Virus record (IMG/VR): IMGVR_UViG_3300025319_000035
DNA length: 47,574 nucleotides
Reading direction: 5' to 3' (one strand)
Origin: a virus
The position numbers were made by a program, and so were the translations under genes. The first letter of the stretch is position 1. Every line of letters begins with the position of its first letter. Below are positions 16,608 through 47,574 of the stretch, one piece after another. The notes below the pieces were generated by a model. That model made no database searches. It saw nothing but the letters and a program-made list of their open reading frames with translations, and was not told the origin of the DNA.

Positions 16608-16810
16608 TGACAATAGCGATCCTTATCAATAACCGACCATTGTATTCACGTACAATTAAGAGGATAGTTAGTGAAGATGATACTGATGGAAATCGATGTT
16701 ATGAAGTTGATGATGGCACAAGAATTTGGCATGATCCAAAAGACGGAATTATTAATCTTGCAAAGAAAGTTTTAGACAAAATAGAACCAGTAGGAGGAAG
16801 ATTTGTATAA
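16604..16810 (+). CDS. Hypothetical protein
   Basis: ATGA coupling. Confidence 0.55.
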   Translation: MMTIAILINNRPLYSRTIKRIVSEDDTDGNRCYEVDDGTRIWHDPKDGIINLAKKVLDKIEPVGGRFV

Positions 16811-17189
16811 TAAGATCATAGAAAATCTTTACGTAGGTAGCATACATGATGCTATCCAATTTAGACAAGATAAACTGGATGGAGTAATACTTTGTGTATT
16901 AGAAAACCGTCCAGATGAAGAACCCTTCAAGGCGTATCATATTCCAATTATAACTGAAAGTGGCCACGTCCATATGGATCAATTAAACCATATCGCATTT
17001 TTCATTGAAACATTACTTGATAAAGAAATTGAAGTCTTGATAAATTGTGCTGCTGGGATGGAACGATCACCACTAGCAGTTGCCTATTATTTGATGTACT
17101 CAAAAGGAATTTCAATTGAAGAAGCATATGAAATTGTTAAAAAAGGAAGACCACAAACAATGGATCGAAGGGTATGGTTAAAAAAATAA
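16803..17189 (+). CDS. Dual-specificity protein phosphatase (Cys-based, CX5R)
   Basis: ENLYVGS N-terminal motif; VLINCAAGMERSPLAVAYYLM P-loop; EEAYEIVKKGRP C-terminal motif. Confidence 0.85.
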   Translation: MYNKIIENLYVGSIHDAIQFRQDKLDGVILCVLENRPDEEPFKAYHIPIITESGHVHMDQLNHIAFFIETLLDKEIEVLINCAAGMERSPLAVAYYLMYSKGISIEEAYEIVKKGRPQTMDRRVWLKK

Positions 17190-18510: not shown

Positions 18511-18852
18511 ATGGGAGAATTTAAACAAGAATTTGTCTGCGGTGTGGTCTTTGAAGAACTAAACCCATCAGACAAAAAAAGAGAATTAGATAAATTCATT
18601 AATGAAAATCAAGACTTGTTCATTAAGAAAGATCCAAAGAGAAATGGCTACGTAAGTTATGTAATGATTTGGGATGGCGGTAAAGAAGGCTGGATTGAAA
18701 GCGATCGAGCAAATAAACTTCGAGAGAAATTCATTCAATTATTACAAAAAAATGATGCTCACATTTATCATATTATAGATGATCCCTATTCTGATCATCC
18801 ATACTTATTTTCACATTATGACAAATATTCAAAGGAGATAAAAGTTGAGTAA
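18511..18852 (+). CDS. Hypothetical protein
   Basis: ATG 18511 after GGAG, 2 nt past upstream stop. Confidence 0.6.
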   Translation: MGEFKQEFVCGVVFEELNPSDKKRELDKFINENQDLFIKKDPKRNGYVSYVMIWDGGKEGWIESDRANKLREKFIQLLQKNDAHIYHIIDDPYSDHPYLFSHYDKYSKEIKVE

Positions 18853-25790: not shown

Positions 25791-26329
25791 ACATTCAACA
25801 ATATGAAGAAAAAATTGCTGAATGGGATATGTATCCCGATGACATCAAACCAACAATCTATCTGCTTGGCGATTTTGGCGAGCTGGGAGAATTGATAGAA
25901 AAAATAATTGATCATTATGAGAAATTTAAAAAGATAGAAAAGCGACAGATGAAACTTGCATTGGAAATCGGAGATGTATATTGGTACATATTTCGCTTTA
26001 TGAACGCATTAGGATTTAGCTATATTGAGATCATGAAAATTAAAGTGGGAATTAAAAAAAGCAAAAACCCATTGATTACATTACTTAGAGTGGTAGTCCA
26101 AGTTGGAAAAATCTCAAATGATTTTAAAAAGATATTTCGTGATCATGGGGGAAGGCTAGATAAAAGACAGATGGAATACGCTATAAGAATTGCAAAATTA
26201 CTGAGATATTTGAATCATTTTCTAGTCCAGATCGGCTTTACATTTGACGAGGTGATCGAAATGAATTATGAAAAGTTAGAGTCACGATTTCAAAGAAATA
26301 AAATAAAGGGTGTAGGAGATGGACGCTAA
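25787..26329 (+). CDS. MazG-like NTP pyrophosphohydrolase (internally duplicated)
   Basis: GDFGELGE...LEIGDVYWY; C-terminal NYEKLESR..RNKIKGVGDGR typical of viral MazG-like proteins. Confidence 0.8.
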   Translation: MNIQQYEEKIAEWDMYPDDIKPTIYLLGDFGELGELIEKIIDHYEKFKKIEKRQMKLALEIGDVYWYIFRFMNALGFSYIEIMKIKVGIKKSKNPLITLLRVVVQVGKISNDFKKIFRDHGGRLDKRQMEYAIRIAKLLRYLNHFLVQIGFTFDEVIEMNYEKLESRFQRNKIKGVGDGR

Positions 26330-27252
26330 TGGAAACTATACTTATAGAAAAAAAATGGAAAAAAATGACAAAAAGACAAATAATTAAATCAAGAATAACA
26401 AGTCAGAATAGATATAACAGAAAAGAAAATGGGTTTAGATCCTTTTTTAAAAGAATTGAGGATGAAAGATTAGCAACTTTACCCATGTTCGATAAATTAC
26501 AAGGAATAATAATGAGTGATGGACATTTATCACCTGTAAGTATTACAGGCAAATCCTGTTTCAGATTAACACAACGTTATGATCGATATGAATTAATTCA
26601 AACAACCCGAGATTTTTTAAATAGTTTAGGATTCATAACATATGAACGAGAATTTATTATAGAAAATCTTGCAACAAAATATGTTCAATTAGCAACATAT
26701 CATTATACTTACTTTGGTAATCTTAGAAAACAGTGGTATAAAAATGGAAATGGAAAAAAGTATGTATCTGATAGATTTACCTTAAATGAAAAAAGTCTTG
26801 CATATTGGTTTATGTGTGATGGTTCGGCAAAAAGACAAGGAAATGTAACTATTATTCATTTAGCAACATATGGGTTCGATGAAAAAAGTAATAGCAATCT
26901 GCTTAGCGAATTAAAACGATTAGGTTTAAAAGCAATATTAACAAATTCAAAGAATGGATATTATATTAACATAAACCAGAAAGAATCAGTTTTTCGATTT
27001 TATGATTTAATATCACCATATATTTTAGATTGTTTCAAATACAAAATTAAAGAACCAAAAGTAATATTAACAAAAAAACAAACAATAACAAAATTCCAAA
27101 ACCAACTAAATAATTATTTAGATTACGTAAAAGGTTTTTGTTATCTGGGATATTCAAAAAGAAAGAAAAAATATGTTCTAAAAATGTCCAAAAGAACTTG
27201 GTGGATTAGAAGAACAAGAAAAAAAATGGAGCTACAGGGTAGAGCCGAATGA
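26329..27252 (+). CDS. Free-standing LAGLIDADG homing endonuclease
   Basis: Two motifs, LQGIIMSDGHL and LAYWFMCDGS (LAGLIDADG_2-type); Lys-rich flanks. Confidence 0.85.
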   Translation: METILIEKKWKKMTKRQIIKSRITSQNRYNRKENGFRSFFKRIEDERLATLPMFDKLQGIIMSDGHLSPVSITGKSCFRLTQRYDRYELIQTTRDFLNSLGFITYEREFIIENLATKYVQLATYHYTYFGNLRKQWYKNGNGKKYVSDRFTLNEKSLAYWFMCDGSAKRQGNVTIIHLATYGFDEKSNSNLLSELKRLGLKAILTNSKNGYYININQKESVFRFYDLISPYILDCFKYKIKEPKVILTKKQTITKFQNQLNNYLDYVKGFCYLGYSKRKKKYVLKMSKRTWWIRRTRKKMELQGRAE

Positions 27253-29642: not shown

Positions 29643-30440
29643 ATGCCTTTAATTGAAAAGGAACTAAATGTATTTGAGGCATATACAAGAGATGTTGGAC
29701 GTAATATAGCAAGAATAGATTACGATACAATGGACGCATTACATCTCAATACAGGTACAACAATTTTGATAAAAAGTAAAAAAGGTAAAGAAGCAGTAGG
29801 AAAAGCTCTACCGCTTTATCCAGCAGACGAGAGTAAAAAAATAATTAGAATTGATGGAATAATGCGAAAGAACTTAGATGTAATTGTAAAAGAACCTGTA
29901 ATAATTCAAAAAACCGAAACCAAACATGCCGAACAGATAACTGTAAGACCATTAGAAGTAACCCCCCCAATTGAGGAAAGGTACATCGCTGAGTGTCTTG
30001 AAGGCTCACCAGTAATTAAAAACTCAGCATTTTATATTCCCTATTTTGGTAACAGGATAACATTTGTAGTAGAAGACACAAAACCCGATGGTGCTGTTTT
30101 AGTCACTCCGTTAACGACCAAAGTGATTATCAATGCTGAATCTGTACCAAAAAAATTACTGGAAATACAAAAGAAGATAATAGAAAAACAGAATTCCCTA
30201 CTGGATAAATTAAAAGGCGAGGTCGAAAACAGTCAGAATCTTTCGGATATTTTACAAGTCTTTAATACAATTCAATCTGAACTTACTCAATACACCTACT
30301 TGTATGAAACAATAAAACTCATGTATTATGATTCAAATCTAAAGCCTCCAACATCAATTAGCAAGACTCTCAAAGAGGCAATATCACAGTGGCAAAAAAC
30401 AAACGAGGAAAAAAAGAAAGGAGAAAAAAAGAATGATTGA
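29643..30440 (+). CDS. CDC48/VAT N-domain (double-psi barrel plus beta-clam) fused to a helical C-terminal region, no AAA domain
   Basis: EAYTRDVGRNIARIDYDTMD...LPLYPADESKKIIRIDGIMR...PLEVTPPIEERY...PYFGNRITF matches archaeal (recalled thaumarchaeal) CDC48 N-termini. No Walker A/B. Confidence 0.85.
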   Translation: MPLIEKELNVFEAYTRDVGRNIARIDYDTMDALHLNTGTTILIKSKKGKEAVGKALPLYPADESKKIIRIDGIMRKNLDVIVKEPVIIQKTETKHAEQITVRPLEVTPPIEERYIAECLEGSPVIKNSAFYIPYFGNRITFVVEDTKPDGAVLVTPLTTKVIINAESVPKKLLEIQKKIIEKQNSLLDKLKGEVENSQNLSDILQVFNTIQSELTQYTYLYETIKLMYYDSNLKPPTSISKTLKEAISQWQKTNEEKKKGEKKND

Positions 30441-34277: not shown

Positions 34278-35360
34278 GTGGCAAGTTCATCACTGACAAA
34301 CGTACTGATCATAGGAACAGTAATCTTTGCAATCGCGATGATCATTCCGATCTTCTTTGATGTTGACTTTCCCCAAAGAGGGGATACAATAACATTTGTA
34401 GACAAAGCGATTTGTACCATAATTCCAAACGGAGGGGGAAACTATACTTGTTTAACACCAGATGATACAGTATTTTTCAACGGAACTGGTTTAACTATTA
34501 CAGCTAATGATACAGAAAGAACAGTATTTTTTGCAGTTGATGCAAACGGTACAATAACAACGTGTTCAAATATTGGCCCTGGTTTTGGCATTTGTTCTGG
34601 GCCAGTTTTTTCAACATTAGAATTTAAAAGCCTAGTTGCAGGCACAGATATTAACATAACAAGTGATGCAAATTCATTAACAATTGATTTTGCTGGAACT
34701 ATATCTGCTGGTGAAAATACAACCGCAACCTCATTAGGTGGAGATACAGATGTTTTTGAAAGTCAGGTAGGTGATCAGCTAAGATTTAGAGGTTTAACTG
34801 CTGGTCAAAATATTATTCTAACTCAAAACGCAAATGATATAGTAATTAACTCAACTGATACAAGTGGAGTAAAATTTGCAATCCTAACAGCAGGTGGTGC
34901 AACACTTCAAACACCAGCTTCCTCAACTCCACAGCGAGATACCCAGGCTGGAACTAACTTCGATTATCTTGCATTAGAATATGATGCTACAACTTCCGAA
35001 GAAGTGGTTTGGCAGTATCAATTTCCAACTGATGCAGATGGCACACAAAATGTTAATGTTCTGATAAGATTCCTAACTCCTACTGGCTCAGCAGGTGGAG
35101 TTTGTTTCTCAGGCCAGTTTCTAGGTAGAGCAAACACAGAACCCTATGATGTTGCTATGGGTACAACTATCACTGGTTGTGATACAACCTTGGATACAGC
35201 AGGTGACATAAACGAAATAACACTTACATTTACTACTGGACAACATGGTTTAACTGCTGGCGATACAGTAGTTTTCAAACTTGCTAGGGATACAGCAAAC
35301 GGAAGCGACACTCATGCAGGTGACGCATGGTATATCGATTCAAGGGTGACTTGGAGTTAA
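34278..35360 (+). CDS. Putative virion fibre/adhesin
   Basis: N-terminal TM; two repeats LEFKSLVAGTDINITSDANSLTI / LRFRGLTAGQNIILTQNANDIVI; T/G/D-rich beta C-terminal domain; many NxT sequons. Confidence 0.6.
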   Translation: MASSSLTNVLIIGTVIFAIAMIIPIFFDVDFPQRGDTITFVDKAICTIIPNGGGNYTCLTPDDTVFFNGTGLTITANDTERTVFFAVDANGTITTCSNIGPGFGICSGPVFSTLEFKSLVAGTDINITSDANSLTIDFAGTISAGENTTATSLGGDTDVFESQVGDQLRFRGLTAGQNIILTQNANDIVINSTDTSGVKFAILTAGGATLQTPASSTPQRDTQAGTNFDYLALEYDATTSEEVVWQYQFPTDADGTQNVNVLIRFLTPTGSAGGVCFSGQFLGRANTEPYDVAMGTTITGCDTTLDTAGDINEITLTFTTGQHGLTAGDTVVFKLARDTANGSDTHAGDAWYIDSRVTWS

Positions 35361-37351
35361 AAAAACAATTATTTCTAATTCCAATTGTATTTGCATTAAC
35401 TTTTTTTGTTAATCAAAACGTATATGGTGATCTCTTTGCAAGACCTGACTCAGATCCATCTACAAGGTGGGTAAACGGAATTGGCCCACTACCATGTTCT
35501 GACTTGCTAACATTCAACTGTGTTGATGAAGTTATAAGAAATGACGCAGATTATATTCAAACTACAGGACTAGGTAACGCTGGATCAGACTCACAGTTCT
35601 ATACGTTATCAAACATCGCAGATCCATTACAGTCAACAGGACACATCTTACGTTATACATTAAGAGAGGGAAATGAGGGAACTAATCCAGTTGGATTTAC
35701 AATTACCTTAAGACAGGGTGTAACAGTAATTGCAACTTTTACTCATGCACAGGGATCACTTCCAACTTCATTTACATTATTTCAACAAACATTAACTGCT
35801 GCACAGGCAAATTCAATTACAAACTACAATAATCTTGAGCTAACCCTAGTAGGCAGTTGTATTACTGGCTGTGGAAACAGCCCATCCCAGAGGGAAAGAG
35901 TAGCAGTTTCATGGGTAGAGTTTGCTGTAATTACAGGAGTTTCACCACCAACACTTAACGCTGTAAATGTCCTTAGCCCAACCTCCTTAAGATTAGTCTG
36001 GACACAACCACTAGATACCACGTCAGTTCTAAGTTATAACATTGAAAGAGATAACGGACTTGGTTTTACAGTAGTTGGTAACGTTCCAGTTGGAACGGTA
36101 TCATTTGATGACATTAATTTAATTCCAGATTCACTTTACAAGTATAGGCTAGTATCAGTTGGATCGTCAGGAAACAGTATACCATCAAACGAAATATCAC
36201 AAACTACAACTGTAATAATACTACCATCAAAGTTTGCAAGACCTGACTCAGATCCAAGTCTAAGATGGGTAAACGGAATAGGTACACCACCATGTTCAGA
36301 TTTACTTACATTCAATTGTGTTGATGAATTAGTAAGAGATGATAGAGATTATATCCAGTCAATCGGACTTGGAGATGCAGATCAGGACCAACAGTTCTAT
36401 ACAATGTCAGATGTTTCTGATCCATTCAAGTCAGATGGCCATATCTTACGTTATACATTAAGAGAGGCTGGTGAAGGAACTAACCAAGTTGGATTTACAA
36501 TTTCACTAAGACAGGGAGTTTCACCAATTGCAACTTTCACTCATGCTCAGGGATCACTTCCAACCGCATTTACATTATTTGAACAGGAATTAACCAACGC
36601 ACAGGCCGATTTAATTACTAACTACGGAGGTTTGGAGCTAACATTAACTGCAAGTTGCAGTGTAGGTTGCTCAAACAACCCATCATCAAGAGATAAGGTT
36701 CAGGTTTCATGGATAGAGTTTGAAATACTTTCATCAAGTCCACCAGTAATTCAAAACGTTGACACATTAAGCAGTACATCTTTAAGACTTGGTTGGGTAA
36801 ATGAAATTCAAAACCCCGATGATATTGCAGAAATTATTATCCAAAGAAATGTAGGACCAGATTTTATAACGGTAGCAACCTTGCCAAGTTTTACTGGTTC
36901 TTATGATGATACTGGATTAACCCCACAAACAATTTACAATTACAGGTTAAAAGCAAAGTTATCTGGTGGAGGATTCAGTAATCCCTCAGATATTTTTGCT
37001 GGATCAACTCCTGCAAATCCCACAACATTAACTATTCAGGGTGCTATAATTGAACCAACACCGACAAACAGTTTTTCCGAGGGAGATTCCCAGATTATTG
37101 CACAAACTATCGAGTTGTTTAATGTAAATTCACCCAGCATGGATACAATAATCAATGACATAAATGTAAACCGACTGAACGCATATCAAATTATCACAAA
37201 AATGAATGACGGTTCTTATGACAATACCCAGAAAATGAAAAACGCTGGTGCATTTTATGGAACAATTTACTTAAACTCAAACAACATTTCTGTTTTCATA
37301 AACAACGTAGTTAATACAGTCTTATCAGCAGTAAACGGAGAAGAACCTTGA
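35351..37351 (+). CDS. Secreted/virion protein with two ~163-aa duplicated modules, each followed by a fibronectin type III domain
   Basis: TTG 35351 after GGGTGA; signal peptide; FN3 hallmarks (SPTSLRLVW...YNIER...F.D..L.PDSLYKYRL; LRLGW...YDDTGLTPQTIYNYRL). Confidence 0.75.
   Translation: MELKKQLFLIPIVFALTFFVNQNVYGDLFARPDSDPSTRWVNGIGPLPCSDLLTFNCVDEVIRNDADYIQTTGLGNAGSDSQFYTLSNIADPLQSTGHILRYTLREGNEGTNPVGFTITLRQGVTVIATFTHAQGSLPTSFTLFQQTLTAAQANSITNYNNLELTLVGSCITGCGNSPSQRERVAVSWVEFAVITGVSPPTLNAVNVLSPTSLRLVWTQPLDTTSVLSYNIERDNGLGFTVVGNVPVGTVSFDDINLIPDSLYKYRLVSVGSSGNSIPSNEISQTTTVIILPSKFARPDSDPSLRWVNGIGTPPCSDLLTFNCVDELVRDDRDYIQSIGLGDADQDQQFYTMSDVSDPFKSDGHILRYTLREAGEGTNQVGFTISLRQGVSPIATFTHAQGSLPTAFTLFEQELTNAQADLITNYGGLELTLTASCSVGCSNNPSSRDKVQVSWIEFEILSSSPPVIQNVDTLSSTSLRLGWVNEIQNPDDIAEIIIQRNVGPDFITVATLPSFTGSYDDTGLTPQTIYNYRLKAKLSGGGFSNPSDIFAGSTPANPTTLTIQGAIIEPTPTNSFSEGDSQIIAQTIELFNVNSPSMDTIINDINVNRLNAYQIITKMNDGSYDNTQKMKNAGAFYGTIYLNSNNISVFINNVVNTVLSAVNGEEP
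35435..36721 (+). repeat. Intragenic direct repeat (35435-35923 and 36233-36721, 489 bp each)
   Basis: FARPDSDPS.RWVNGIG..PCSDLLTFNCVDE...GHILRYTLRE...IATFTHAQGSLPT.FTLF...VSW.EF is duplicated. Confidence 0.9.
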
Positions 37352-38655
37352 ATAAATTTATAATTTTAATTTCATTACTTCTAATTCCAATTCCACTTGC
37401 ATATGCAGATAACAGCATTTTACAGATAATAAAAGTAAGTGGCACAGCAACCATAGGAGTTCAAAACTTTGACTATACTGTATCGCCAGCAGTAACCGAC
37501 ATAACAAAAACAATGATCTTCATGTCAGTAAGACACATTGGTGATTCAAATGAGAAGGAAGTATATCGAAGCTGGGAACTGATAAATCCAACAACATTAA
37601 GGTTTTACGGAAGTAGTAATGTACCAGCAAACAATGATGCCCTGACTTTTATTGGTTATATCGTAGAGTTTACAAGTAACAGTGATATGACTTCCCAACA
37701 AGGTTTGATGACAGTTGCAGGTGGACAGGCAAACCAAGAGTTTACTGATTCATTTACTGCTGTCAACACAACATCAAGTTTCTTTCAGTTTCTAGGTCAG
37801 ACAGCTAACCACGCTGATCTTACTTGGGGTGTGGAAGAATTTGCAAGAATGAGAATAATTAGCTCAACATCTTTTGGCTATGAACCATTTGATGCACCTA
37901 ACAGTGGCCCAACAGATGTAAGATACCAAATTATTGACTTGGCAAATAACGATTTCTTTGTCCAGCGTGGAACTGCATTTATGCCTGATGGAACAGCATT
38001 ACTTACTATAACGCCACCAATTGCAATAGATAGAACAAGAACAATAGTTTTTGCAAGCCATATGTTACAAAATGGTATTCTTGATGCAGAAGCAGATGAA
38101 CACTCTTTTACATTAAGAGTTAACGCTTTAAACCAACTTGAATTTGACAGAGATGATGCTGTTTGTAATACACCAAACGTTTGTGACTTACAAATAAGAT
38201 GGGAAGCGGTATCATTTCCAGCAGACTTTGTAAATGTTCAATATCTTCAATTTGATGATACAGTTGCAACAGGTGCAAACGTACAACAAACAGGTATAGT
38301 AAATTTTGTGCCAACACCTGTTATTTTTGCAAATTCAATAGCAATAGGAACAGTCCACACACCTTTAGGACTTGGACAAGGTAGATCAGCAAGTGGGGGA
38401 AATGGTGCATGGGATCAAGAAGCTTATACAGTTGAACTAATGGATGCGGATACGGTAAATGTTGTAATAAATGACGGTCAACAATTATCAGATGTTTGGT
38501 TTCAAGTCATCGAGTTTGAACAGTTTGGAGCTGGCGATATTAATTCAGGTATTCAACAACAGCCAAGTTGTTGCTTTTTCTTCATAAAACCTCTCCTAGA
38601 TTGGCTAGGTTCGGTCTGGACTTTTCTTTTAATTAACTCCTTGGTGTTCATCTAG
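37348..38655 (+). CDS. Secreted/virion protein with about four tandem beta-rich repeats
   Basis: Signal peptide; repeats starting [AP][VI]xxxx[TS]hhh and ending YIVEF / YQIIDL / WEAVSF / FQVIEF. Confidence 0.65.
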   Translation: MNKFIILISLLLIPIPLAYADNSILQIIKVSGTATIGVQNFDYTVSPAVTDITKTMIFMSVRHIGDSNEKEVYRSWELINPTTLRFYGSSNVPANNDALTFIGYIVEFTSNSDMTSQQGLMTVAGGQANQEFTDSFTAVNTTSSFFQFLGQTANHADLTWGVEEFARMRIISSTSFGYEPFDAPNSGPTDVRYQIIDLANNDFFVQRGTAFMPDGTALLTITPPIAIDRTRTIVFASHMLQNGILDAEADEHSFTLRVNALNQLEFDRDDAVCNTPNVCDLQIRWEAVSFPADFVNVQYLQFDDTVATGANVQQTGIVNFVPTPVIFANSIAIGTVHTPLGLGQGRSASGGNGAWDQEAYTVELMDADTVNVVINDGQQLSDVWFQVIEFEQFGAGDINSGIQQQPSCCFFFIKPLLDWLGSVWTFLLINSLVFI

Positions 38656-38685: not shown

Positions 38686-39024
38686 TTGGTCGAGGCAGGA
38701 TTATTTGTCGGGCTTGGAGGACTAGGGTTTGTATTCCTACTACTGTCATTTAAGTTTGGAGCTCTATTAAAGGCACTATCGGCAGTAATTTTCTTCTCTC
38801 TTGCGATGATTCTTTTTGCAGGTTATGAAATAGCCTATACCAGCGAATTAACAGGTGGCCTAACCGAGTGTACTGATTCAGTACCATGTCTTGAACGAAA
38901 CTTTGTAGTAAGAGAGGACGATATTACAGGAGAAACATTTGGTTCATGGATGGCATGGGTAATGATCATGTTGGGAATTTTATCCTCAATGTTATTTATC
39001 TTGGAGATGTTTGTATGGAATTAA
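38686..39024 (+). CDS. 3-TM membrane protein with Cys pair (structural module)
   Basis: TTG after GAGGTGA; TECTDSVPC loop. Confidence 0.7.
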   Translation: MVEAGLFVGLGGLGFVFLLLSFKFGALLKALSAVIFFSLAMILFAGYEIAYTSELTGGLTECTDSVPCLERNFVVREDDITGETFGSWMAWVMIMLGILSSMLFILEMFVWN

Positions 39025-39040: not shown

Positions 39041-39505
39041 ATGGTTTCAGAGGCATTTGTTAAAATTTATTTCTTCTTTCTTCTATTTAACGTTGCAGCG
39101 TTTATGATTCAGGCAACAATTGATCAAGCACAGACAGAAGGGATGCCAAACACTGACGCGGTACTAGCATTTACGACACAGCATATTAACGATACAGGTA
39201 CTAGGTTCATCAACGGTACAAGTATTCAGAACGACACAGATACGCTAGTAGGTCAGATTTACAATCCACTTAATGAAACAGGTGATCCAGGAGATATTGT
39301 AAATGAAAACAGCATACTTAACATTCTAAGTCTGGATAATGCAGTTAGGTTTATCGATGGAGGTTTCATTTTGGATGGCTTTGACAACTTTGGAAATTCA
39401 ATCGGCCTTGATTTCCCAGACGAAATTAAGATTGGATTTGCAGTAGTAATTGGGTTTCTCACATTCTTTTGGCTGCTTTATGTATTCCTTGGACGTTCAA
39501 CATGA
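39041..39505 (+). CDS. Two-helix hairpin membrane/virion protein with glycosylatable loop
   Basis: Terminal hydrophobic helices; NDT, NGT, NDT and NET sequons; C-terminus LGRST. Confidence 0.7.
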   Translation: MVSEAFVKIYFFFLLFNVAAFMIQATIDQAQTEGMPNTDAVLAFTTQHINDTGTRFINGTSIQNDTDTLVGQIYNPLNETGDPGDIVNENSILNILSLDNAVRFIDGGFILDGFDNFGNSIGLDFPDEIKIGFAVVIGFLTFFWLLYVFLGRST

Positions 39506-39613: not shown

Positions 39614-40609
39614 TTACGTATTAAACTTAAAGCTACCAATCCATTTATCTAAATTGCCAACTAAAATTCCAATGAGCAAGGAAATTCCAGTGATCAACGG
39701 AACAAACCTGTATGGCCATACATCATAACTCGACATCCCAATCAAGATTGGAGATGTAAATATTATCCCATAACAAAATATAATTGCTGGAAGACCTTGA
39801 CGAATCCTTTTTGTAATCAACAACGTTGTAGCAAATATCAAAAATACAACAGTAAATTGATCGTGGGCAAATCCTTTCCAGATCCAGCTAACAAATCCCA
39901 TAAAAAACTGTTCAGAATCAAACCTATCAATCAGTAAAAGGGATTTACCAATATCATCAATTAAATAAATTCCAGTGATTCCAAGCAAAACAACAGCTAG
40001 ATATAAAATAATTATAACTAATTTGTTCAAGTTCTTATCAATTAAGATAAAGAGCAGAAGTGCAGGAAGAAATAATATTGTAATTGATTTGGCAAGGACT
40101 GATAATACAAAAAATACAGGGGAAAATACATAAAATTTAGTCCTTGTAAGGTACAAAGATAGAATAAAAAACAAAGACCAGAAGCTAGGATAGGTTACAG
40201 AAGTATCATAATTGAAGAAGATCGAGCTTTGCAAGGTAACAAGAACCGCAATAACGCTTGCAATTCTCTTTTGTGTAATAGAATAAACAAGTTTGTAAGT
40301 AACAGCAAGGATCAAAATACTTGATACAAATGGCAATACATTATAATTTCCAAATGTAATTTGACTAAGTTCGAGCAATCCCATATGGACAGAGTGCCTC
40401 CAATCATCCTTAATCCATGATAAATCCCACACATACAGCCTAGCCATCCGCCTGTCAAAATCAAAACAGTTTCTATATCCACTACACTCAGATTGAAACA
40501 ATTCAAAGCTGGTTAACACAATATATCCAGCAAAAATTACAAGCATTACATAGAAAGTCTGTCTTTTTGTAATCTCAAAACTGGCAATTTTCTGAATATC
40601 CAATTGCAA
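39614..40609 (-). CDS. GT-C fold (PMT/ArnT-like) integral membrane glycosyltransferase
   Basis: About 9 TM; YNVLPFVSSILILAVTYKLV...LVTLQSSIFF...FFILSLYL...LSVLAKSITILFLP pattern. Confidence 0.65.
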   Translation of the reverse strand: MQLDIQKIASFEITKRQTFYVMLVIFAGYIVLTSFELFQSECSGYRNCFDFDRRMARLYVWDLSWIKDDWRHSVHMGLLELSQITFGNYNVLPFVSSILILAVTYKLVYSITQKRIASVIAVLVTLQSSIFFNYDTSVTYPSFWSLFFILSLYLTRTKFYVFSPVFFVLSVLAKSITILFLPALLLFILIDKNLNKLVIIILYLAVVLLGITGIYLIDDIGKSLLLIDRFDSEQFFMGFVSWIWKGFAHDQFTVVFLIFATTLLITKRIRQGLPAIIFCYGIIFTSPILIGMSSYDVWPYRFVPLITGISLLIGILVGNLDKWIGSFKFNT

Positions 40610-40664: not shown

Positions 40665-40705
40665 TGTCGGACATTGGGCAATAATTTTCTTTTAAATAAG
40701 TCCAC
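40665..40705 (+). promoter_or_regulatory. Putative late promoter, copy 3, with TGTCGGACA palindrome
   Basis: TGTC-N-GACA (40665-40673) 18 nt before TTTAAATA; motif TTCTTTTAAATAAGTCCAC 40687-40705. Confidence 0.75.
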
Positions 40706-40720
40706 ATTTAAGGTTCTTTA

Positions 40721-40804
40721 ATGGTACAATCACTAGGCTTACTACATAGTAGAAATAGTACGGTTAGTACCCATTTTACTTTTAAAGGAGGTGAAATGAC
40801 TTAG
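40721..40804 (+). other. Leaderless upstream ORF (MVQSLG...GGEMT, 27 aa)
   Basis: ATG 30 nt after TATA start; its TAG overlaps the TTA first codon of the hairpin gene. Confidence 0.55.
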
Positions 40805-41031
40805 TTTTATCATTAGGCTTTATTCTAGCCTTCATTGGTGCAGCAGTAGCATTACTTATTGGAATACTTATCTTCTCAGAAGTATCTGACGCAATCAACT
40901 GTCCAACTGGACAGGGTAGCACAGAGTGCCAAAACGCAAAAGATACTGCATGGACTGTTATAGGTATTCTTCCAGTAGCACTATTCTTTGCACTGTTCGC
41001 CATATTCGGTGCTTTAGGCGGAAGACAATAG
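40801..41031 (+). CDS. Putative major capsid (or pilin-like) hydrophobic hairpin protein A, 76 aa, non-canonical start (TTA)
   Basis: (L)VLSLGFILAFIGAAVALLIGILIFSEVSDAINCPTGQGSTECQNAKDTAWTVIGILPVALFFALFAIFGALGGRQ. Homologous to the array genes; SD GGAGGTGA 6 nt upstream; own promoter and terminator. Confidence 0.8.
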   Translation, partial: LVLSLGFILAFIGAAVALLIGILIFSEVSDAINCPTGQGSTECQNAKDTAWTVIGILPVALFFALFAIFGALGGRQ

Positions 41032-41037
41032 AAAAAA

Positions 41038-41074
41038 TTCGGTTGCTAATCACAACCAAATTTCTCTTTTTTTT
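41038..41074 (+). terminator. Hairpin plus T-tract terminator
   Basis: GGTTG-CTAATCA-CAACC followed by TTTCTCTTTTTTTT. Confidence 0.7.
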
Positions 41075-41111: not shown

Positions 41112-41152
41112 TGTCAGACAACAGGCAATTATTTTCTTTTAAATAAGTCCAC
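41112..41152 (+). promoter_or_regulatory. Putative late promoter, copy 4, with TGTCAGACA palindrome
   Basis: Same palindrome-to-TATA spacing (18 nt) as copy 3. Confidence 0.75.
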
Positions 41153-41167
41153 AATCAAGCTTCTTGT

Positions 41168-41200
41168 ATGGTACGATCACTCGGTGGTGAAATCTCATAG
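41168..41200 (+). other. Leaderless upstream ORF (MVRSLGGEIS)
   Basis: ATG 30 nt after TATA start; TAG overlaps the ATA first codon of hairpin gene B. Confidence 0.55.
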
Positions 41201-41427
41201 TTTTATCATTAGGCTTTATTCTCGCATTTATCGGTGCAGCAGTAGCATTGTTAATTGGAATACTTATCTTCTCAGAAGTATCTGATGCAATCAACTGTCC
41301 AACTGGACAGGGTGCTACAGAATGTGCAAACGCGAAAGACACAGCATGGACTGTTATTGGTATTCTTCCAGTAGCATTATTCTTTGCATTGTTCGCCATA
41401 TTCGGTGCATTAGGAGGACGAGAGTAG
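41197..41427 (+). CDS. Putative major capsid (or pilin-like) hydrophobic hairpin protein B, 76 aa, non-canonical start (ATA)
   Basis: Near-identical to protein A (differs at the start codon, ATECAN and the C-terminal E); SD GGTGGTGA 6 nt upstream. Confidence 0.8.
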   Translation: MVLSLGFILAFIGAAVALLIGILIFSEVSDAINCPTGQGATECANAKDTAWTVIGILPVALFFALFAIFGALGGRE

Positions 41428-41493: not shown

Positions 41494-41512
41494 TTCTTTT
41501 AAATAAGTCAAC
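41494..41512 (+). promoter_or_regulatory. Putative late promoter, copy 5
   Basis: TTCTTTTAAATAAGTCAAC; ATG of a 7-aa uORF (41527-41550) 29 nt downstream. Confidence 0.7.
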
Positions 41513-41540
41513 AAAAAATCATTCTTATGGTGTTTCTACT

Positions 41541-41828
41541 ATTGCTGTAGCTATAATTATCATCGCCACTTTATCTATCATCGCAACTGTAATGGCAGTT
41601 TTAGCTTTAGCTCCTATGATTGATCAGCTTGGTAGCTCAAATGATCCAGAAGGACATTGGAGTGAAACTCAGGCAAAGGCAGATGGTGGTGACATTTATG
41701 CTCAACATGCAATAGAATCTCGTGACAGAACATTTCAAGCAATTCTTGTTTTACCAATATTTTTAATCGGTGCTATTGTAGCTTGGGCATTTTTGGCCGT
41801 TACGAGGAGGGATTTTGGCGAGGTATGA
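41541..41828 (+). CDS. Divergent two-helix hairpin protein C (start uncertain: ATT 41541, GTA 41547 or ATG 41592)
   Basis: IAVAIIIIATLSIIATVMAVLALAPMIDQL...AILVLPIFLIGAIVAWAFLAVTRRD. The ORF-track start at 41322 lies upstream of a terminator and promoter and is unlikely. Confidence 0.65.
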   Translation: MAVAIIIIATLSIIATVMAVLALAPMIDQLGSSNDPEGHWSETQAKADGGDIYAQHAIESRDRTFQAILVLPIFLIGAIVAWAFLAVTRRDFGEV

Positions 41829-42667
41829 TTAAATTTGTCAGTATTAATAAAAAAAATATGATATTAAGAAATAAAAAAGGACAATTCAAAAAAGGAAACC
41901 AAAAAGGAATTCCATTATCTAAAAAAACAAAAAGAAAAATCGGTCTAGCCAATAAAGGAAAACCAAATTGGAAGAAAGGAACAAAAGGATTACAACTTCA
42001 CTCAGAAAAAACAAAAAGACTCATCTCCCTTCATAATAAAGCAGGCACAAAAGCAGTAAGAGAAAAAAATCGTAAATGGCATTTAGGAAGAAAATTAAAT
42101 TCAAAACATAAATTAAAAATAGCAAAAGCAATAAAAATAAAATGGAAGGATTCACAATATAGAAAAAATCATCATGAAGGAATGTTAGGATTACAAAATA
42201 CTTTAGGAACAAAACAATCCAAACAAACAATTGCAAAACGAATGAAAACAATGAAGCCGATCTTCAGTTCAGAAAAATATAAATCCAAACAGAGAAAAAA
42301 CAGACTTCACCAAGTTTTTCCAACAAAAGATTCAAAACCAGAAAGAATGGTTCAACAAATGCTAAAAGCCAATGATATTGAATATCAGACTCATTATCCA
42401 ATTATCGGCCAGCCTGATCTTTTTGTAAAACCTTCAGTTTGTATCTTTGTTGATGGATGTTATTGGCATGGTTGTAAGAGATGTCATCCTAAGATATGGG
42501 AAAAATACAGACAAATCTACGAGCAGATAATGTACGATAATGAGATCACTCATACATTAACAGTACGCGGTTACTATGTGATCAGAATTTGGGAACATGA
42601 AATTACTCCTAACAATGTAGAAGTTGCCAAAAATGTAATAAAAATAATCGGGATGGCTCGTAGTTAA
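41825..42667 (+). CDS. Free-standing homing-type endonuclease: NUMOD3-like basic repeats plus Vsr/DUF559 nuclease domain
   Basis: PLSKKTKRKIG, HSEKTKRLIS and QSKQTIAKR repeats; SKPE...GQPDLF...IFVDGCYWHGC...GYYVIRIWEHE. ATGA/TAATG coupled. Confidence 0.8.
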   Translation: MIKFVSINKKNMILRNKKGQFKKGNQKGIPLSKKTKRKIGLANKGKPNWKKGTKGLQLHSEKTKRLISLHNKAGTKAVREKNRKWHLGRKLNSKHKLKIAKAIKIKWKDSQYRKNHHEGMLGLQNTLGTKQSKQTIAKRMKTMKPIFSSEKYKSKQRKNRLHQVFPTKDSKPERMVQQMLKANDIEYQTHYPIIGQPDLFVKPSVCIFVDGCYWHGCKRCHPKIWEKYRQIYEQIMYDNEITHTLTVRGYYVIRIWEHEITPNNVEVAKNVIKIIGMARS

Positions 42668-43446
42668 TGGTTCTTAGTCTTCCTTTCATACTTGCTTTCA
42701 TCGGTAGTGCAGTTGCATTAATAGTTGGCATGGTAATTTATGGTGACATTTCAGAGGCAATCGAATGTCCTGCTTCTGGTGGAGGTGGTGCTGGTGGTGA
42801 TCTATTCAATACTTTAGGGTTACTACCTGATGGTGATGGTGTAGATATGGAAGTACACCGCATCTCAGGACAATTAATAACATTATCAAACCAACAAATA
42901 GAATCTGTCACAGTAAATAATATAGATTCGGCTTCTAACAGTAATGGTATTTTAAATGCAGTAATCTATTCAGGAGTATCTAATAATACAGCATTTGGTT
43001 CTACAACATTAGAAGCAACATCCGACTCTATTGATCTGTCTGATGGTGCATATGCTTTCAACAGTGATTTTGATATTACATTTAACTTTACATCTGCACC
43101 AACATTATCAGGTTCAGATATTGTAATTGCTTTAGAAGTAGTTGGTGAAGATGATCAATTATTTCTAGAAGCTGTTGATACTGATATTGGTGGAAATGAA
43201 GGTATTGCTATTACAAAAGAAAATACTGAATTTTGGGTATTAAATCCAATCATCGAAAATCATCCAAATCTAGCAGAGGATATTTTAATGCAAGTCACAT
43301 TAGCTGGTGGTGGCCCAGCCGAAACTGGTTCAGAACAGTGCCAACAGGCAAAAGATATTTCTTGGACTGTAATAGGAATAATTCCAGTCGCATTATTCTT
43401 TTCCCTATTTGCAATATTTTCTGCACTAGGTACAGGAAGGCAGTAA
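42667..43446 (+). CDS. Hairpin-scaffold protein with ~190-aa passenger (module X), array member 1
   Basis: Conserved N-terminus MVLSLPFILAFIGSAVALIVGMVIYGDISEAIECP and C-terminus GSEQCQQAKDISWTVIGIIPVALFFSLFAIFSALGTGRQ. Confidence 0.9.
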   Translation: MVLSLPFILAFIGSAVALIVGMVIYGDISEAIECPASGGGGAGGDLFNTLGLLPDGDGVDMEVHRISGQLITLSNQQIESVTVNNIDSASNSNGILNAVIYSGVSNNTAFGSTTLEATSDSIDLSDGAYAFNSDFDITFNFTSAPTLSGSDIVIALEVVGEDDQLFLEAVDTDIGGNEGIAITKENTEFWVLNPIIENHPNLAEDILMQVTLAGGGPAETGSEQCQQAKDISWTVIGIIPVALFFSLFAIFSALGTGRQ

Positions 43447-43449
43447 CAA

Positions 43450-44634
43450 TTGGTTCTAAGTTTACCATTCATACTTGCTTTCATTGGTAGTGCAGTTGCA
43501 TTAATAATTGGCATGGTAATTTATGGCGATATTTCAGAGGCAATCGAATGTCCTGCTTCTGGTGGTGGAGGACAGATGACATCATCTGCACCAAACACAG
43601 GATCATTTTCTAATGCTGATGGAGAATATTTTGAAAATGGAATACAAACTAACTTTAATGTAGTAAGTGGAATATTAAACAACGGAGTTTTGCAGGAAGG
43701 TACTGCAAGCTTGGAGGATCAAGGCGAGATAAGATTTGGAACAAACTCACAATGGGATTTTCTTCATACAGTTGATAGTGTAAATAGCAACAAGACAAGT
43801 ATTAATTTTTGGATAAAGGGAGATGTAGATGCTGCCTCAACAGAAGTTCCACTATTATCAACAATGAATAAAAATGCTGGTGATAATGACGGATTCATTT
43901 TTTACGCATTTAACGACACATCCCTTGGTGCTGGTAGTGCAGATTTATGGATTGAAATAGATGAGGCTGGTATAAACATAGTTAATCGTTCAACTGGTGG
44001 AGGACAATTTGGTATGGGAATACCAGCAAATGATGGTCAGTGGCATATGATTACATTGATTATGTATAAGGGGTGTGGACCAGGATTCGTGAATCAATTT
44101 AATAATCCTACTTGTTCAAACGCAACTGAAAGTGAAACTTTCGGTAACTTTGCTCACTTATGTATTGATGGTAATGGATTTGGATGTGGTCAGATGGGAT
44201 TTCAACCAGGATTTCCAAATCCCTTTACAGGTTTAGGTGGCACATCAGGTAAAACACTAACAGTCGGTGGCAATCATTTTATTAACGGTATATCAGAAAA
44301 AAGTTTTCAAATTGATGACTTGACAATTTGGCATGGTTACATCTTAAAGAGTGGAATATCTGATCCAAACGGTAATGATGTTACTAATTTATACAATGCA
44401 GGTGTTGGTTCTTCTGCTGGTGCAACAGGATTAAACATAGCACCACAATTTCAGGTTCTTCATGTTAACTTTGATGCAGTTGTAGAAGGAGGTGGAGGAG
44501 GATCACCAGAAATAGGTTCAGAACAGTGCCAGCAAGCAAAAGATATTTCATGGACTGTGATAGGAATTATTCCAGTCGCATTATTTTTCAGTCTATTTGC
44601 AATCTTTTCTGCACTAGGTACAGGAAGGCAGTAA
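43450..44634 (+). CDS. Hairpin-scaffold protein with LamG/ConA-like passenger (~325 aa), array member 2
   Basis: Same termini; SINFWIKG, GQWHMITL, LCIDG, LTVGG, IDDLTIW and NLYNAG. Confidence 0.9.
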   Translation: MVLSLPFILAFIGSAVALIIGMVIYGDISEAIECPASGGGGQMTSSAPNTGSFSNADGEYFENGIQTNFNVVSGILNNGVLQEGTASLEDQGEIRFGTNSQWDFLHTVDSVNSNKTSINFWIKGDVDAASTEVPLLSTMNKNAGDNDGFIFYAFNDTSLGAGSADLWIEIDEAGINIVNRSTGGGQFGMGIPANDGQWHMITLIMYKGCGPGFVNQFNNPTCSNATESETFGNFAHLCIDGNGFGCGQMGFQPGFPNPFTGLGGTSGKTLTVGGNHFINGISEKSFQIDDLTIWHGYILKSGISDPNGNDVTNLYNAGVGSSAGATGLNIAPQFQVLHVNFDAVVEGGGGGSPEIGSEQCQQAKDISWTVIGIIPVALFFSLFAIFSALGTGRQ

Positions 44635-46371
44635 ATGGTTCTTAGTCTTCCTTTCATACTTGCTTTCATCGGTAGTGCAGTTGCATTAATAGTTGGCATG
44701 GTAATTTATGGAGATATTTCAGAAGCTATTGAATGTCCTGTTGATGAGATAATTGGTGGTGGAGGGGATTCTGATGCAAGAGTTTCTTTAATCTCACAAA
44801 CATTTGATGAAGAACCAATCGATGTAGCTGGTGATTTTAGTGGCGATGTTGGATATATTGGTCATCTTTTATCTGGTGGACAAGATATTTATTCAAACAG
44901 TTTTAAGGTAAGTGGAATTTTTGCACACTTTAGAGCAGGCAGTACACCAACAAACGGAACAATGAGTGCAGTTGTTCTTTCAAACGTAATAGAGGGTGGA
45001 TTATTTGGAAGTGAAGTTGTTGAAACAACAAGTAGCAATTCATTAGACCTTACTACATTACCACTAGCATCAAACATTCAACCTTTAAGAAATGCTACCC
45101 CAAAGTGGAATAGTTTTTTATTTACATTCACCAACCCACCAACACTTAATGATTCTACGGATATGCTATTTGGATTTAAAATTGATGGATTATCTAGTGG
45201 TGCATTTGAATTTGCTTCTTTTGGATCTGGTGAAACAGGAGGTGGAACTTGTTATTTCAATACAGCAGGAAGTGATAGTTGGAATACTTGCAGTGTTACT
45301 GCATTAGGACTTGAAATTCAATTATTAGTAGAGGATGTAACAGATTTTGAAACAACAGGAGGTATTAATCCAAGTGCATTATTAATCCATCATACTTTTG
45401 ATTCAAACACAAGATTTGATAGTGCGATTGATGATACATTATATGTAAATGCTGGAACATTAGGACATGATGGAGATATTTCAGTATTAAACTATGAGAA
45501 GCATCAAGACGATTTTAGTACATGGGTTACTGCTGGAAAAGTTGGTGACGGTGCAGTATTTGTTGGTGATGTAGGTGCAGATGCTAATGCAGAATTAGAA
45601 ATTGGATTTTCTGAAAATGCAGTAACAGAGGAATGGACATTTTTGCATAGTGAATTAGGTAATTTTGGTGCTGTTGATGGCTATTCAATTAACTTATGGT
45701 TAAAAGGTCAATGGACTGATCTATTTGGAACAAATTTTGTACCAATTTTATCTGATCTAGATACAGAACCATTATTTGCTACAGATGGAATGGTATTGGG
45801 AATTAATGGTACAGGTGAAATATTTTATAAATTAGCTACTGATATTGATTCACCGTTTAATGAAGTAACATCAACTCTTGGTGGATTAACAGATAACACA
45901 TGGAGTATGGTTACAATTGTTGTTAATCAAGAACCACAACCACCATTTACTAATTCTGAATTAACTATGTGTATTGATGCTACTTGTCAAATCGTAAATA
46001 ATACAGGTGCATTTGATAAACAATTTTTCATTCCTAACAGATTAACAATTGGTAATGGATTATACATGGATGACTTTATTTCACTTAATGTATTTGCCGA
46101 AAAAATAGACTTTAATATAGACCAACTTTGTATTTGGAAAGATCATCAACTAATCCAATCAGAAATAAATACACTGTATAATTCTGGTGCTGGTACAACT
46201 TGTGGAACTGTTAGCGGATCTGGTGGTGGAGGAGGAAGCGAAGCTCAAGTAGGTTCAGAACAATGCCAACAGGCAAAGGATATTTCTTGGACTGTAATAG
46301 GAATTATTCCAGTCGCATTATTTTTCAGTCTATTTGCAATATTTTCAGCACTAGGTACAGGTAGACAATAA
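44635..46371 (+). CDS. Hairpin-scaffold protein with module X plus LamG passenger (~509 aa), array member 3
   Basis: Same termini; first half resembles the member 1 passenger, second half is LamG-like (SINLWLKG, WSMVTI, MCIDA, IDQLCIW). Confidence 0.9.
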   Translation: MVLSLPFILAFIGSAVALIVGMVIYGDISEAIECPVDEIIGGGGDSDARVSLISQTFDEEPIDVAGDFSGDVGYIGHLLSGGQDIYSNSFKVSGIFAHFRAGSTPTNGTMSAVVLSNVIEGGLFGSEVVETTSSNSLDLTTLPLASNIQPLRNATPKWNSFLFTFTNPPTLNDSTDMLFGFKIDGLSSGAFEFASFGSGETGGGTCYFNTAGSDSWNTCSVTALGLEIQLLVEDVTDFETTGGINPSALLIHHTFDSNTRFDSAIDDTLYVNAGTLGHDGDISVLNYEKHQDDFSTWVTAGKVGDGAVFVGDVGADANAELEIGFSENAVTEEWTFLHSELGNFGAVDGYSINLWLKGQWTDLFGTNFVPILSDLDTEPLFATDGMVLGINGTGEIFYKLATDIDSPFNEVTSTLGGLTDNTWSMVTIVVNQEPQPPFTNSELTMCIDATCQIVNNTGAFDKQFFIPNRLTIGNGLYMDDFISLNVFAEKIDFNIDQLCIWKDHQLIQSEINTLYNSGAGTTCGTVSGSGGGGGSEAQVGSEQCQQAKDISWTVIGIIPVALFFSLFAIFSALGTGRQ

Positions 46372-47489
46372 TGGTTCTTAGTCTTCCTTTCATACTTGCT
46401 TTCATCGGTAGTGCAGTTGGGTTAATAGTCGGTATGGTAATTTATGGCGACATCTCAGAAGCTATCGAATGTCCTGTTGATGGAGGTGTAGGTGGGGGAG
46501 GTCTGACAAATGTAACAAGTTACGATAACTTGGGAACATTAGGATCTATTGCAGATGCTACATATGCTGAATTTGAAGTTGTAGCAGAGTTTCTACCACC
46601 CATCACAGGAAGAATAAATGAAGGGGTAAGACAAGAAGGAACGGATAGTGGAGATTCAAACGGAGAAATTTATTTAGGATCAACACCTTCAACTTGGGAT
46701 TTCTTACATAATAGTGATATTGGTTCAGAAAAAATCAGCATAAACTTATGGGTACGTGGTAACCTTAATACAAGTAGTGCTAGCATAATTGTTCCAATAC
46801 TTACTAACACTTGTGGTGTATTTTTTGAAGGTATAGAACAATGTTCTAATCCGATTTCAGGTGGTGAAAATGGAGTTTACTTACACACAAGAGGATCACC
46901 TGAAATCCCTTTCAGTGAAACAACAGAACTAACAGTAATAGTAAACAATAGCACACAGATGTCACAAGAGGTAGATGATGTTCCATCAGATGATGACTGG
47001 CATATGATAACAGTATTATATAATAAAACAATTGGATTCGGTAAGATTTGTATCGATGGTTCATCAAACTGTGGTGTTGATGGAACAGCAGGTTGGGATA
47101 GTGCTGGTTCAGCAATACATAGATTAACAATAGGTAGTGACAATGATGTTACACAATCAACAGATCATCTTGAACTTACATTCGAAATTGATGATCTGAC
47201 ATTTTGGCATGGGTACACTTTAACAGATACCGATATAGATAATTTATTCAATGGGGGTGCTGGTGCATCTGCTGGTTCGTCAGGTTTAGCAATTTCGGTT
47301 GCAACCCAAAAAGGTCACTGGAATTTTGATAACCCAACTGCAAATGGAGTTAGTGGTGGAGCTCAAGTAGGCTCAGAACAGTGCCAGCAAGCAAAAGATA
47401 TTTCTTGGACTGTAATCGGAATTATTCCAGTAGCATTATTTTTCTCATTGTTTGCAATCTTTTCAGCACTAGGTACAGGCAGACAATAA
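46371..47489 (+). CDS. Hairpin-scaffold protein with LamG/ConA-like passenger (~303 aa), array member 4
   Basis: Same termini; SINLWVRG, DWHMITV, ICIDG, LTIGS and IDDLTFW. Confidence 0.9.
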   Translation: MVLSLPFILAFIGSAVGLIVGMVIYGDISEAIECPVDGGVGGGGLTNVTSYDNLGTLGSIADATYAEFEVVAEFLPPITGRINEGVRQEGTDSGDSNGEIYLGSTPSTWDFLHNSDIGSEKISINLWVRGNLNTSSASIIVPILTNTCGVFFEGIEQCSNPISGGENGVYLHTRGSPEIPFSETTELTVIVNNSTQMSQEVDDVPSDDDWHMITVLYNKTIGFGKICIDGSSNCGVDGTAGWDSAGSAIHRLTIGSDNDVTQSTDHLELTFEIDDLTFWHGYTLTDTDIDNLFNGGAGASAGSSGLAISVATQKGHWNFDNPTANGVSGGAQVGSEQCQQAKDISWTVIGIIPVALFFSLFAIFSALGTGRQ

Positions 47490-47491
47490 CA

Positions 47492-47574
47492 ATGGTTCTG
47501 AGTCTTCCGTTCATACTTGCTTTCATCGGCAGTGCAGTTGCATTAATAGTTGGCATGGTAATTTATGGTGACAT
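47492..47574 (+). CDS. Array member 5 (3' truncated by window edge)
   Basis: ATG GTT CTG AGT CTT CCG... encodes MVLSLPFILAFIGSAVALIVGMVIYGD. Confidence 0.9.
   Translation, partial: MVLSLPFILAFIGSAVALIVGMVIYGD

Follow-up and report, generated by a model that had tools for sequence, protein, structure and literature searches.

Hairpin-protein genes with exchangeable loop domains in a virus-like element linked to ammonia-oxidising archaea

Introduction

Hairpin coat proteins with major and minor paralogues are already known from spindle-shaped viruses, insertion domains are known in unrelated capsid folds, and LamG proteins are the proposed host adhesins of the spindle-shaped viruses PAV1 and TPV1 (PMC3603647). 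In VP1 of SSV19, helices at positions 15–44 and 54–83 are joined by a 9-amino acid (aa) loop that forms the outer capsid surface, and the termini face the inner side (PMC9351363). The capsid protein of the Nipumfusiviridae is a computational assignment, and its unusually long turn was already remarked on by the authors (PMC10866085). Viruses of ammonia-oxidising archaea are barely known, yet their hosts drive nitrification in ocean and soil. The present analysis concerns a stretch of 47,574 nucleotides (nt), IMG/VR record IMGVR_UViG_3300025319_000035 (the whole stretch is termed the window), which ends in a tandem array of genes whose products carry additional domains in the turn of a small hydrophobic hairpin. 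The hairpin may be the coat protein of a mobile, probably viral, element of ammonia-oxidising archaea.

Results

An array of genes with common terminal arms

From position 42667 to the end of the window, four complete genes and the start of a fifth lie head to tail, and neighbours abut or overlap by a few bases:

42667–43446 (+): array gene 1, 259 aa, hairpin arms and one copy of a module termed X
43450–44634 (+): array gene 2, 394 aa, TTG start, hairpin arms and a LamG/ConA-like domain (AlphaFold model, Foldseek)
44635–46371 (+): array gene 3, 578 aa, arms, an N-terminal module without assignment, and LamG
46371–47489 (+): array gene 4, 372 aa, arms and LamG; other strains have here a 440-aa gene with two X modules
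47492–47574 (+): array gene 5, its initial 27 codons, cut by the window end; complete at 4966–6072 of contig L003, 368 aa, arms and LamG

L003, an ENA contig that is 99.9% identical to the window, extends the array: after the complete fifth gene there is a sixth member of 524 aa, the two being separated by one minus-strand membrane-protein gene. All members have in common a 35-residue hydrophobic N-terminal arm ending in ECP and a 39-residue C-terminal arm (GSEQC...GTGRQ). The passengers of genes 1–4, counted from Cys to Cys, are 190, 325, 509 and 303 aa long and have Gly runs on both sides. A preliminary description of this DNA, made from the sequence letters, had claimed passengers of these sizes and at least five head-to-tail genes with conserved termini; both claims hold, and the count is six when the extension is included. 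The number of Cys residues is even in each insert; this fits, if weakly, a location that is external and oxidised.

Short hairpin genes

About 1.3–1.9 kb upstream of the array, both types of arm are found around an 8-residue loop between two Cys in two short genes, which are identical to each other at 204 of 231 nt and were correctly recognised in the preliminary description as 76-aa forms of the same scaffold:

40801–41031 (+): short hairpin gene 1, 76 codons, AlphaFold hairpin; TTA in place of the ATG of its homologues, 6 nt past GGAGGTGA
41197–41427 (+): short hairpin gene 2, 76 codons; ATA at the Met position, 6 nt past GGTGGTGA

The TTA and ATA codons (in the stretches 40787–40803 and 41184–41199) are two codons past an in-frame TGA and follow a strong Shine-Dalgarno sequence. 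A matching ATA arrangement is present after GGGGGTGA in the element of a Nitrosotalea metagenome-assembled genome (MAG) described below (L010, positions 18690–18709). Start at a non-canonical codon thus looks conserved, and this argues that the short genes are functional.

The AlphaFold model of the 76-aa protein is a confident alpha-hairpin (predicted local distance difference test score, pLDDT, 86.6) with helices at positions 5–31 and 40–72 and an 8-aa loop, in agreement with the two-helix hydrophobic scaffold proposed earlier. Homologues of 74–132 aa form 96 clusters in public metagenomes, one of them annotated as from a Nitrosopumilaceae MAG. Across 38 aligned short homologues the helices are nearly invariant, while the stretch between two invariant Cys ranges from 8 to 24 residues and contains an N-x-S/T sequon in 16 of the 38. 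By its variable length against fixed helices, the loop stands out as the permissive site. The scaffold has also been extended at its termini: P0178, P0250 and P0243 have a full short hairpin with a C-terminal extension of ~100–370 aa, or with ~140 aa ahead of the hairpin.

Spread of the loop-insertion design

An exhaustive profile search gave 194 representatives at 50% identity, about half of which are split by an insert. Of 134 long homologues, 122 contain both arms according to hidden Markov models (HMMs) specific for each arm. Among these 122, the N arm is N-terminal in 119 and the C arm C-terminal in 116; the stretch between the arms is 95–501 aa in 116 of the 122, with one further member at ~800 aa. 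The loop-insertion design is thus present in at least 116 protein clusters outside the window. The placement of both arms at the extreme termini in so many sequences shows that the architecture is not a matter of chance, and the long forms are, as had been claimed, hairpins with a domain in the loop.

At least 12 groups can be told apart among the inserts, with no detectable similarity between them; they include LamG, a BNR/sialidase-like propeller (PF13088) and several families without assignment. Arrays are present elsewhere as well. When related contigs were compared, a check proposed in the preliminary description, contig L031, from an NCBI metagenome, was found to have an array of four genes, and L033 three genes with a different insert family in each. 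Of 116 loop-insertion homologues, 53 have the Cys pair and 55 do not. Its absence in about half of the wider family suggests that a disulfide staple would be a lineage feature and not a requirement. One candidate for a fused array (P0293, 3818 aa, with 12 matching stretches) was rejected, as it is an unrelated repeat protein.

Insert domains and their exchange between strains

Two modules account for most of the inserts of the array. One is LamG-like: it makes up the insert in genes 2, 4 and 5, and half of the insert in gene 3 (C-terminal) and in gene 6 (N-terminal). The other, the beta-rich module X, is the insert of gene 1 and also forms the C-terminal half in gene 6.

The 394-aa product of gene 2 was modelled by AlphaFold (pLDDT 74; predicted template-modelling score 0.71), and its terminal helices (positions 5–31 and 355–390) are placed around a beta sandwich. 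Foldseek puts this sandwich among the ConA-like lectin jelly rolls with E-values of 6e-8 to 1e-6; the matches are lectin-like binding domains from clostridial neurotoxins and NanA's sialic-acid-binding CBM40. This resemblance is at the level of the fold only and is no hint of toxicity. At the same level, the jelly-roll beta sandwich assigns the domain to the ConA-like lectin superfamily (PF13385). PF13385 is also recorded in several homologues and in array gene 6, but a Pfam scan of the window's own proteins stays below threshold for LamG. The LamG/ConA assignment made earlier is thus supported by the fold and by the homologues and not by a Pfam match in the window. N-glycosylation sequons are not enriched in the inserts beyond the expectation from composition.

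Exchange of a cassette can be seen directly in the population. Three ENA contigs are 99.97–100% identical to the window up to position 46501, which is codon 43 of gene 4, past the Gly linker. Beyond this position they switch to the 440-aa gene with two X modules, the LamG cassette having been replaced. Near-identity up to the linker followed by a different cassette shows replacement at the arm/linker boundary, and near-identical strains therefore differ in what they carry at array position 4, as expected of the interchangeable cassettes that had been claimed.

Selection on the arms

Among the six paralogues, the 69 arm codons show 0–2 aa changes against 18–34 nt differences (9–16% of bases), with a synonymous divergence (dS) of 0.35–1.3. 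The four paralogues on L031 have no aa changes in their arms and 21–37 nt differences in 204 nt. The inserts of the paralogues are merely 24–43% identical. The arms have thus remained the same as protein despite a high dS, which points to strong purifying selection on the protein. The high synonymous divergence rules out that recent gene conversion by itself made the arms identical. To judge from these codon comparisons, a constraint of this degree is more readily explained by helices that must pack into an ordered assembly than by a simple membrane anchor.

The element and its host

The window is rich in genes without relatives, which are small and mostly point in one direction. The recognisable products are LAGLIDADG and Vsr endonucleases, MazG, a dual-specificity phosphatase, an SPFH protein, a DedA/VTT protein, a protein with CDC48 N-terminal domains and many zinc ribbons. 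Cellular core genes were not found in scans of the window's open reading frames (ORFs). Related contigs of 49–93 kb have a similar appearance and have the SPFH gene and others in common with the window.

Two further relatives bear on the host. The first is a 61.9-kb contig in a Nitrosotalea MAG, with two long genes and two short ones, of which one is divergent. The second is a chromosome of the Nitrososphaeria that consists of a single contig of 1.61 Mb (G033) and in which a hairpin gene is accompanied by homologues of the window genes at 38686–39024, 39041–39505 and 41532–41828 in the same order; a STAND/AAA-type NTPase and a DUF2341-LamG protein are encoded next to this module. The hairpin lies in an island of ~32 kb (C1, ~1132000–1164400; L028–L030) that consists of unassigned genes and is located between housekeeping genes and tRNA-Phe. 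The island contains D12 and MT-A70 DNA methyltransferases and a CAP-domain protein, and its hairpin has a loop of 18 residues with a sequon. A direct repeat of the tRNA-Phe end, as expected of an attachment site, was not found around the island. The hairpin is present in 2 of 401 Nitrososphaeria species genomes searched. The patchy distribution and the chromosomal island suggest a mobile, probably viral, element of ammonia-oxidising archaea, in keeping with the archaeal viruses to which the preliminary description compared the array.

Several genes outside the array may be mentioned here. The SPFH/Band 7 protein (23397–24701, minus strand) is 55% identical to one encoded at 11961–13148 of the related contig L011 and has counterparts at 13538–14737 of L031 and 11218–12423 of L032; in these three contigs the gene is within a few kb of long-form genes. 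The ORF at 29643–30440 has two CDC48 N-terminal domains (E = 5.7e-20 and 4.3e-9) and no AAA ATPase rings, and 16803–17189 encodes a dual-specificity protein phosphatase (DSPc, E = 8e-16).

Neighbouring genes and regulation

The genes and signals between the secreted-protein genes upstream and the array, other than the short hairpin genes, are as follows:

38686–39024 (+): 112-aa multi-pass membrane protein, conserved structural module; a tblastn homologue stands in the same order by the G033 hairpin gene; no family match
39041–39505 (+): 154-aa protein with hydrophobic N and C termini, module partner; the homologue is directly upstream of the G033 hairpin gene
39614–40609 (-): polytopic membrane protein, weakly GT-C/EpsG-type (Pfam EpsG E = 4.7e-4, PMT_2 E = 9.6e-4, below cut-off)
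40687–40706 (+): promoter motif (20 nt, TATA-like), one copy preceding short gene 1
41041–41057 (+): terminator-like stem-loop and T run, past short gene 1
41134–41153 (+): promoter motif copy ahead of short gene 2
41494–41513 (+): promoter motif copy ahead of the array-containing operon, in which downstream genes abut or overlap
41532–41828 (+): small protein that has two hydrophobic stretches and RRD at its end, start codon uncertain; the homologue follows the G033 hairpin gene
41783–42667 (+): Vsr-type endonuclease with NUMOD3 (Pfam Vsr E = 9.2e-11, NUMOD3 E = 8e-5; PHROG endonuclease); its stop overlaps the start of array gene 1

The TATA-like motif has five copies in the window, where 0.01 would be expected by chance. 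Two of the five precede the 360-aa gene at 34278, the first in a run of large secreted proteins. A T-rich stretch similar to the terminator of short gene 1 is also found past short gene 2. The operon that begins at the 41494 motif runs from the small membrane protein through the Vsr/NUMOD3 endonuclease to the array. Each short gene has the look of a unit by itself, the long forms make up one operon, and the common promoter motif suggests that short and long forms are co-regulated.

Past the fifth motif copy there is a mini-ORF of 7 codons (41527–41550), which has an ATG start and is in another frame. The first canonical start of the RRD-ending protein, the ATG at 41592, would remove its first hydrophobic helix. 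An ORF on L003 (9230–9460), ahead of a 1609-aa gene, looks by eye like the RRD-ending one. Two free-standing homing-type endonucleases are present: the Vsr/NUMOD3 gene is translationally coupled to array gene 1, and the LAGLIDADG gene is located upstream (26329–27252).

Large proteins flank the region on both sides. Upstream, the secreted proteins at 34278–38655 have 360 aa, 674 aa (with fibronectin-III) and 435 aa and are candidates for tail or fibre proteins. Downstream on L003 (9457–12108), the visible part of the 1609-aa protein reads like LamG and fibronectin-III, making it another tail/fibre candidate. The polytopic protein at 39614–40609, encoded between the large secreted proteins and the hairpin genes, also matches an NCBIfam surface-glycopolymer family below cut-off (E = 2.4e-5); it is a candidate glycosylation enzyme for structural proteins.

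Discussion

A proposed coat protein and its alternatives

With about even confidence, the short hairpin is read here as the building block of the particle shell and the long forms as minor, receptor-binding coat subunits that make up an exchangeable repertoire. The window would then be part of a virus-like element of at least 60 kb in ammonia-oxidising archaea. The two short genes encode an alpha-hairpin that is most likely the major shell block, as VP1 is in fuselloviruses. The six array genes provide equal helices with one or two beta-rich domains set into the loop by Gly-rich linkers and, in this lineage, with a conserved Cys at each flank of the insert. The arms would take the long forms into the membrane and the shell, and the insert domains, held on the outer surface, may bind host surface glycans. 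Module shuffling and cassette exchange at the arm/linker boundaries would alter the repertoire. A wider formulation, for which our confidence falls a shade short of even, is that the contigs represent undescribed viruses of ~50–95 kb with a hairpin coat whose outward loop is a hot spot of insertion, and with arrays of paralogues that have identical helices, carry glycan-binding or glycan-cleaving domains and serve as a repertoire for host recognition, reshuffled from strain to strain by recombination at the arms.

The capsid assignment is the best-supported reading and rests on analogy. The hairpin has the size and shape of the SSV VP1-type capsid hairpins (about 70–95 aa, two hydrophobic helices, short loop). 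Its model superposes on SSV19 VP1 (7xdi_A) with a root-mean-square deviation of 2.8 A over 67 of 69 residues (VIA-align, Z = 6.7). When the short-family profile is aligned by hhalign with the putative capsid protein of the Nipumfusiviridae, the probability is 37% (P = 3.6e-4) and both Cys are in register. As the loop of SSV19 VP1 faces outward, an insertion in the loop would point outward too.

Several results weigh against a coat protein. Unrelated helical hairpins score level with the superposition on 7xdi_A. In Foldseek the capsid match of the 76-aa model is not significant (E = 3.2), and a fold search of BFVD gave nothing significant, an uncharacterised protein of a Nitrosopumilus spindle-shaped virus being eighth at E = 2.5. 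The hairpin has no match in Pfam, PHROG, NCBIfam or the PDB sequences (in the PDB, a single-protein search gave one match without a supporting stretch, the designed protein 7q58, and a profile search gave none). It is also without the Arg-rich N terminus by which SSV19 VP1 contacts DNA. When all window ORFs were compared by tblastn with two Nipumfusiviridae genomes, NYM1 and NTT2, there was one weak match (29% over 99 aa) and no ATPase. Viral hallmarks (another capsid protein, a packaging or replication ATPase, a polymerase, an integrase) were not found in the 47.5 kb, and IMG/VR gave no relatives in two scans by protein pattern and one by degenerate DNA pattern. The short genes are without a canonical start codon, and their expression level is only presumed. 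Finally, the long-form arms of the window differ from the short-form arms at ~18 of 69 positions (about a quarter); on the Nitrosotalea contig they are likewise identical among themselves and about a quarter of positions off the short-form arms. Interchangeability of the two forms in one lattice is therefore not self-evident. A predicted complex of the short hairpin with the 259-aa long form scored 0.00 in a run without controls and counts neither way.

Homology to the spindle-virus capsid proteins is thus only suggestive, as neither the structural nor the profile match is diagnostic. Of the capsid relationship raised in the preliminary description, the VP1-like geometry stands; a significant match in sequence or fold does not.

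One alternative, which is considered unlikely, is that the hairpin and the long forms are proteins of the host-cell membrane, the arms being a two-pass anchor that displays lectin-like domains on infected cells. Such a display might serve contact between cells, keep out a second infection or remodel the surface. Either arm could by its length span a membrane, genes nearby encode membrane proteins and a GT-C-like enzyme, and the want of significant capsid homology and of hallmark virion genes in the window would be explained. However, an anchor has no need of near-absolute conservation of 69 residues at a dS of up to 1.3, and two tandem free-standing 76-aa copies with their own promoter motif and terminator are hard to see as an empty anchor. 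The coat proteins of spindle-shaped viruses are moreover membrane proteins until budding, so that this explanation and a coat function overlap in part.

It appears similarly improbable that the long forms are structural and yet assemble apart from the short hairpin, as a terminal tuft, a collar or a fibre base at one pole, with the short hairpin forming the body. The identity of the arms among the six long paralogues and their distance from the short-form arms, here and on the Nitrosotalea contig, suggest that long forms may assemble with each other and form a sub-assembly of their own in some lineages. A LamG domain is far wider than the footprint of two helices, which would make dense packing in the body lattice unlikely, and spindle-shaped viruses gather adhesion proteins at one pole (PMC9351363). 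On the other side, the long-form arms of L031, L011 and L032 are almost equal to the canonical short-form sequence, which fits direct substitution into the short-form lattice.

Pilins had been named as another possible relative, and the searches give them no support. No solved pilin or other chain is among the PDB matches up to E = 10, and no pilin is among the Foldseek and VIA-align rows, in which hairpin folds are poorly discriminated. The packaging ATPase or pilus secretion genes whose presence the preliminary description proposed to check were not found: Pfam and Walker A searches show no VirB4/CedB/HerA-type ATPase in the window or in its extension on L003, the element being incomplete, and the sole Walker A motif of the window belongs to a protein of 147 aa. 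An archaeal type IV pilin or archaellin was rejected since the hydrophobic helix begins at residue 2, with no charged leader or Lys/Arg-Gly cleavage motif. A conjugative or DNA-uptake pilin (VirB2/TrbC or CedA1/TedC type), with the long forms as adhesin-bearing pilins of a conjugative element, is very improbable: such pilins are likewise small hydrophobic helical hairpins, and the element is mobile and can be chromosomal, but a pilin match in the PDB and the ATPase are both missing, and in F-type pili the inter-helix loop lines the lumen, so that a loop insert of 190–800 aa would block the channel.

Significance

If the hairpin is indeed a coat protein, spindle-type coats can bear folded domains in their surface loop. 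The use of many coat paralogues instead of one tail fibre would be, for an archaeal virus, a new means of encoding and varying the recognition of its host. The invariant arms would further serve as a sequence tag for a group of viruses that apparently escapes present viral-detection pipelines, as no relatives were found in IMG/VR. The arms may also be regarded as a natural display scaffold, as at least 12 unrelated passenger families have already been tolerated in evolution.

Comparison with known systems

The coat proteins VP1 and VP3 of the Fuselloviridae (SSV1, SSV19; 7XDI chain A) are, like the protein described here, small hydrophobic alpha-hairpins of nearly equal dimensions. Fuselloviruses also have more than one coat paralogue per genome (major VP1, minor VP3), and glycan-directed adhesion on the particle would be a further likeness. 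They differ in that fusellovirus VP1 has a pro-peptide, which the present hairpin does not; VP3 is another plain hairpin, and SSV19 adheres by VP4, which is a separate tailspike. The literature searched gave no coat paralogue of a fusellovirus that has a domain in its loop.

The putative capsid protein of the Nipumfusiviridae (NYM1 ORF10, NTT2 ORF60) has the same order of helix, Cys, variable and often sequon-bearing loop, Cys and helix (PMC10866085). The predicted hosts are of the same group, Nitrosopumilaceae and relatives. In contrast, the Nipumfusiviridae genomes are 27–38 kb against at least 60 kb here, and no domain-bearing paralogues are described in that work (PMC10866085). With essentially no other genes in common with the two genomes, the window is not a member of this family by the 2025 ICTV criteria (PMC12451623).

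PAV1-676/678 have LamG jelly rolls in one or two copies, as here, but these are described as separate large proteins and not as coat hairpins with an insert (PMC3603647). A hairpin coat-type protein with folded domains in its turn was not found in the literature searched, nor were arrays of such paralogues with strain-level cassette exchange, and the architecture had not been recognised from described viruses in the preliminary description either. That an exposed site of a coat can tolerate a folded, outward-facing passenger is known from the I-domain of P22, the hexon towers of adenovirus, Hoc of T4 and pIII/pVIII display on filamentous phage. Those systems have unrelated folds and one fixed insertion per capsid protein, whereas the locus described here has an array of otherwise identical subunits with differing passengers.

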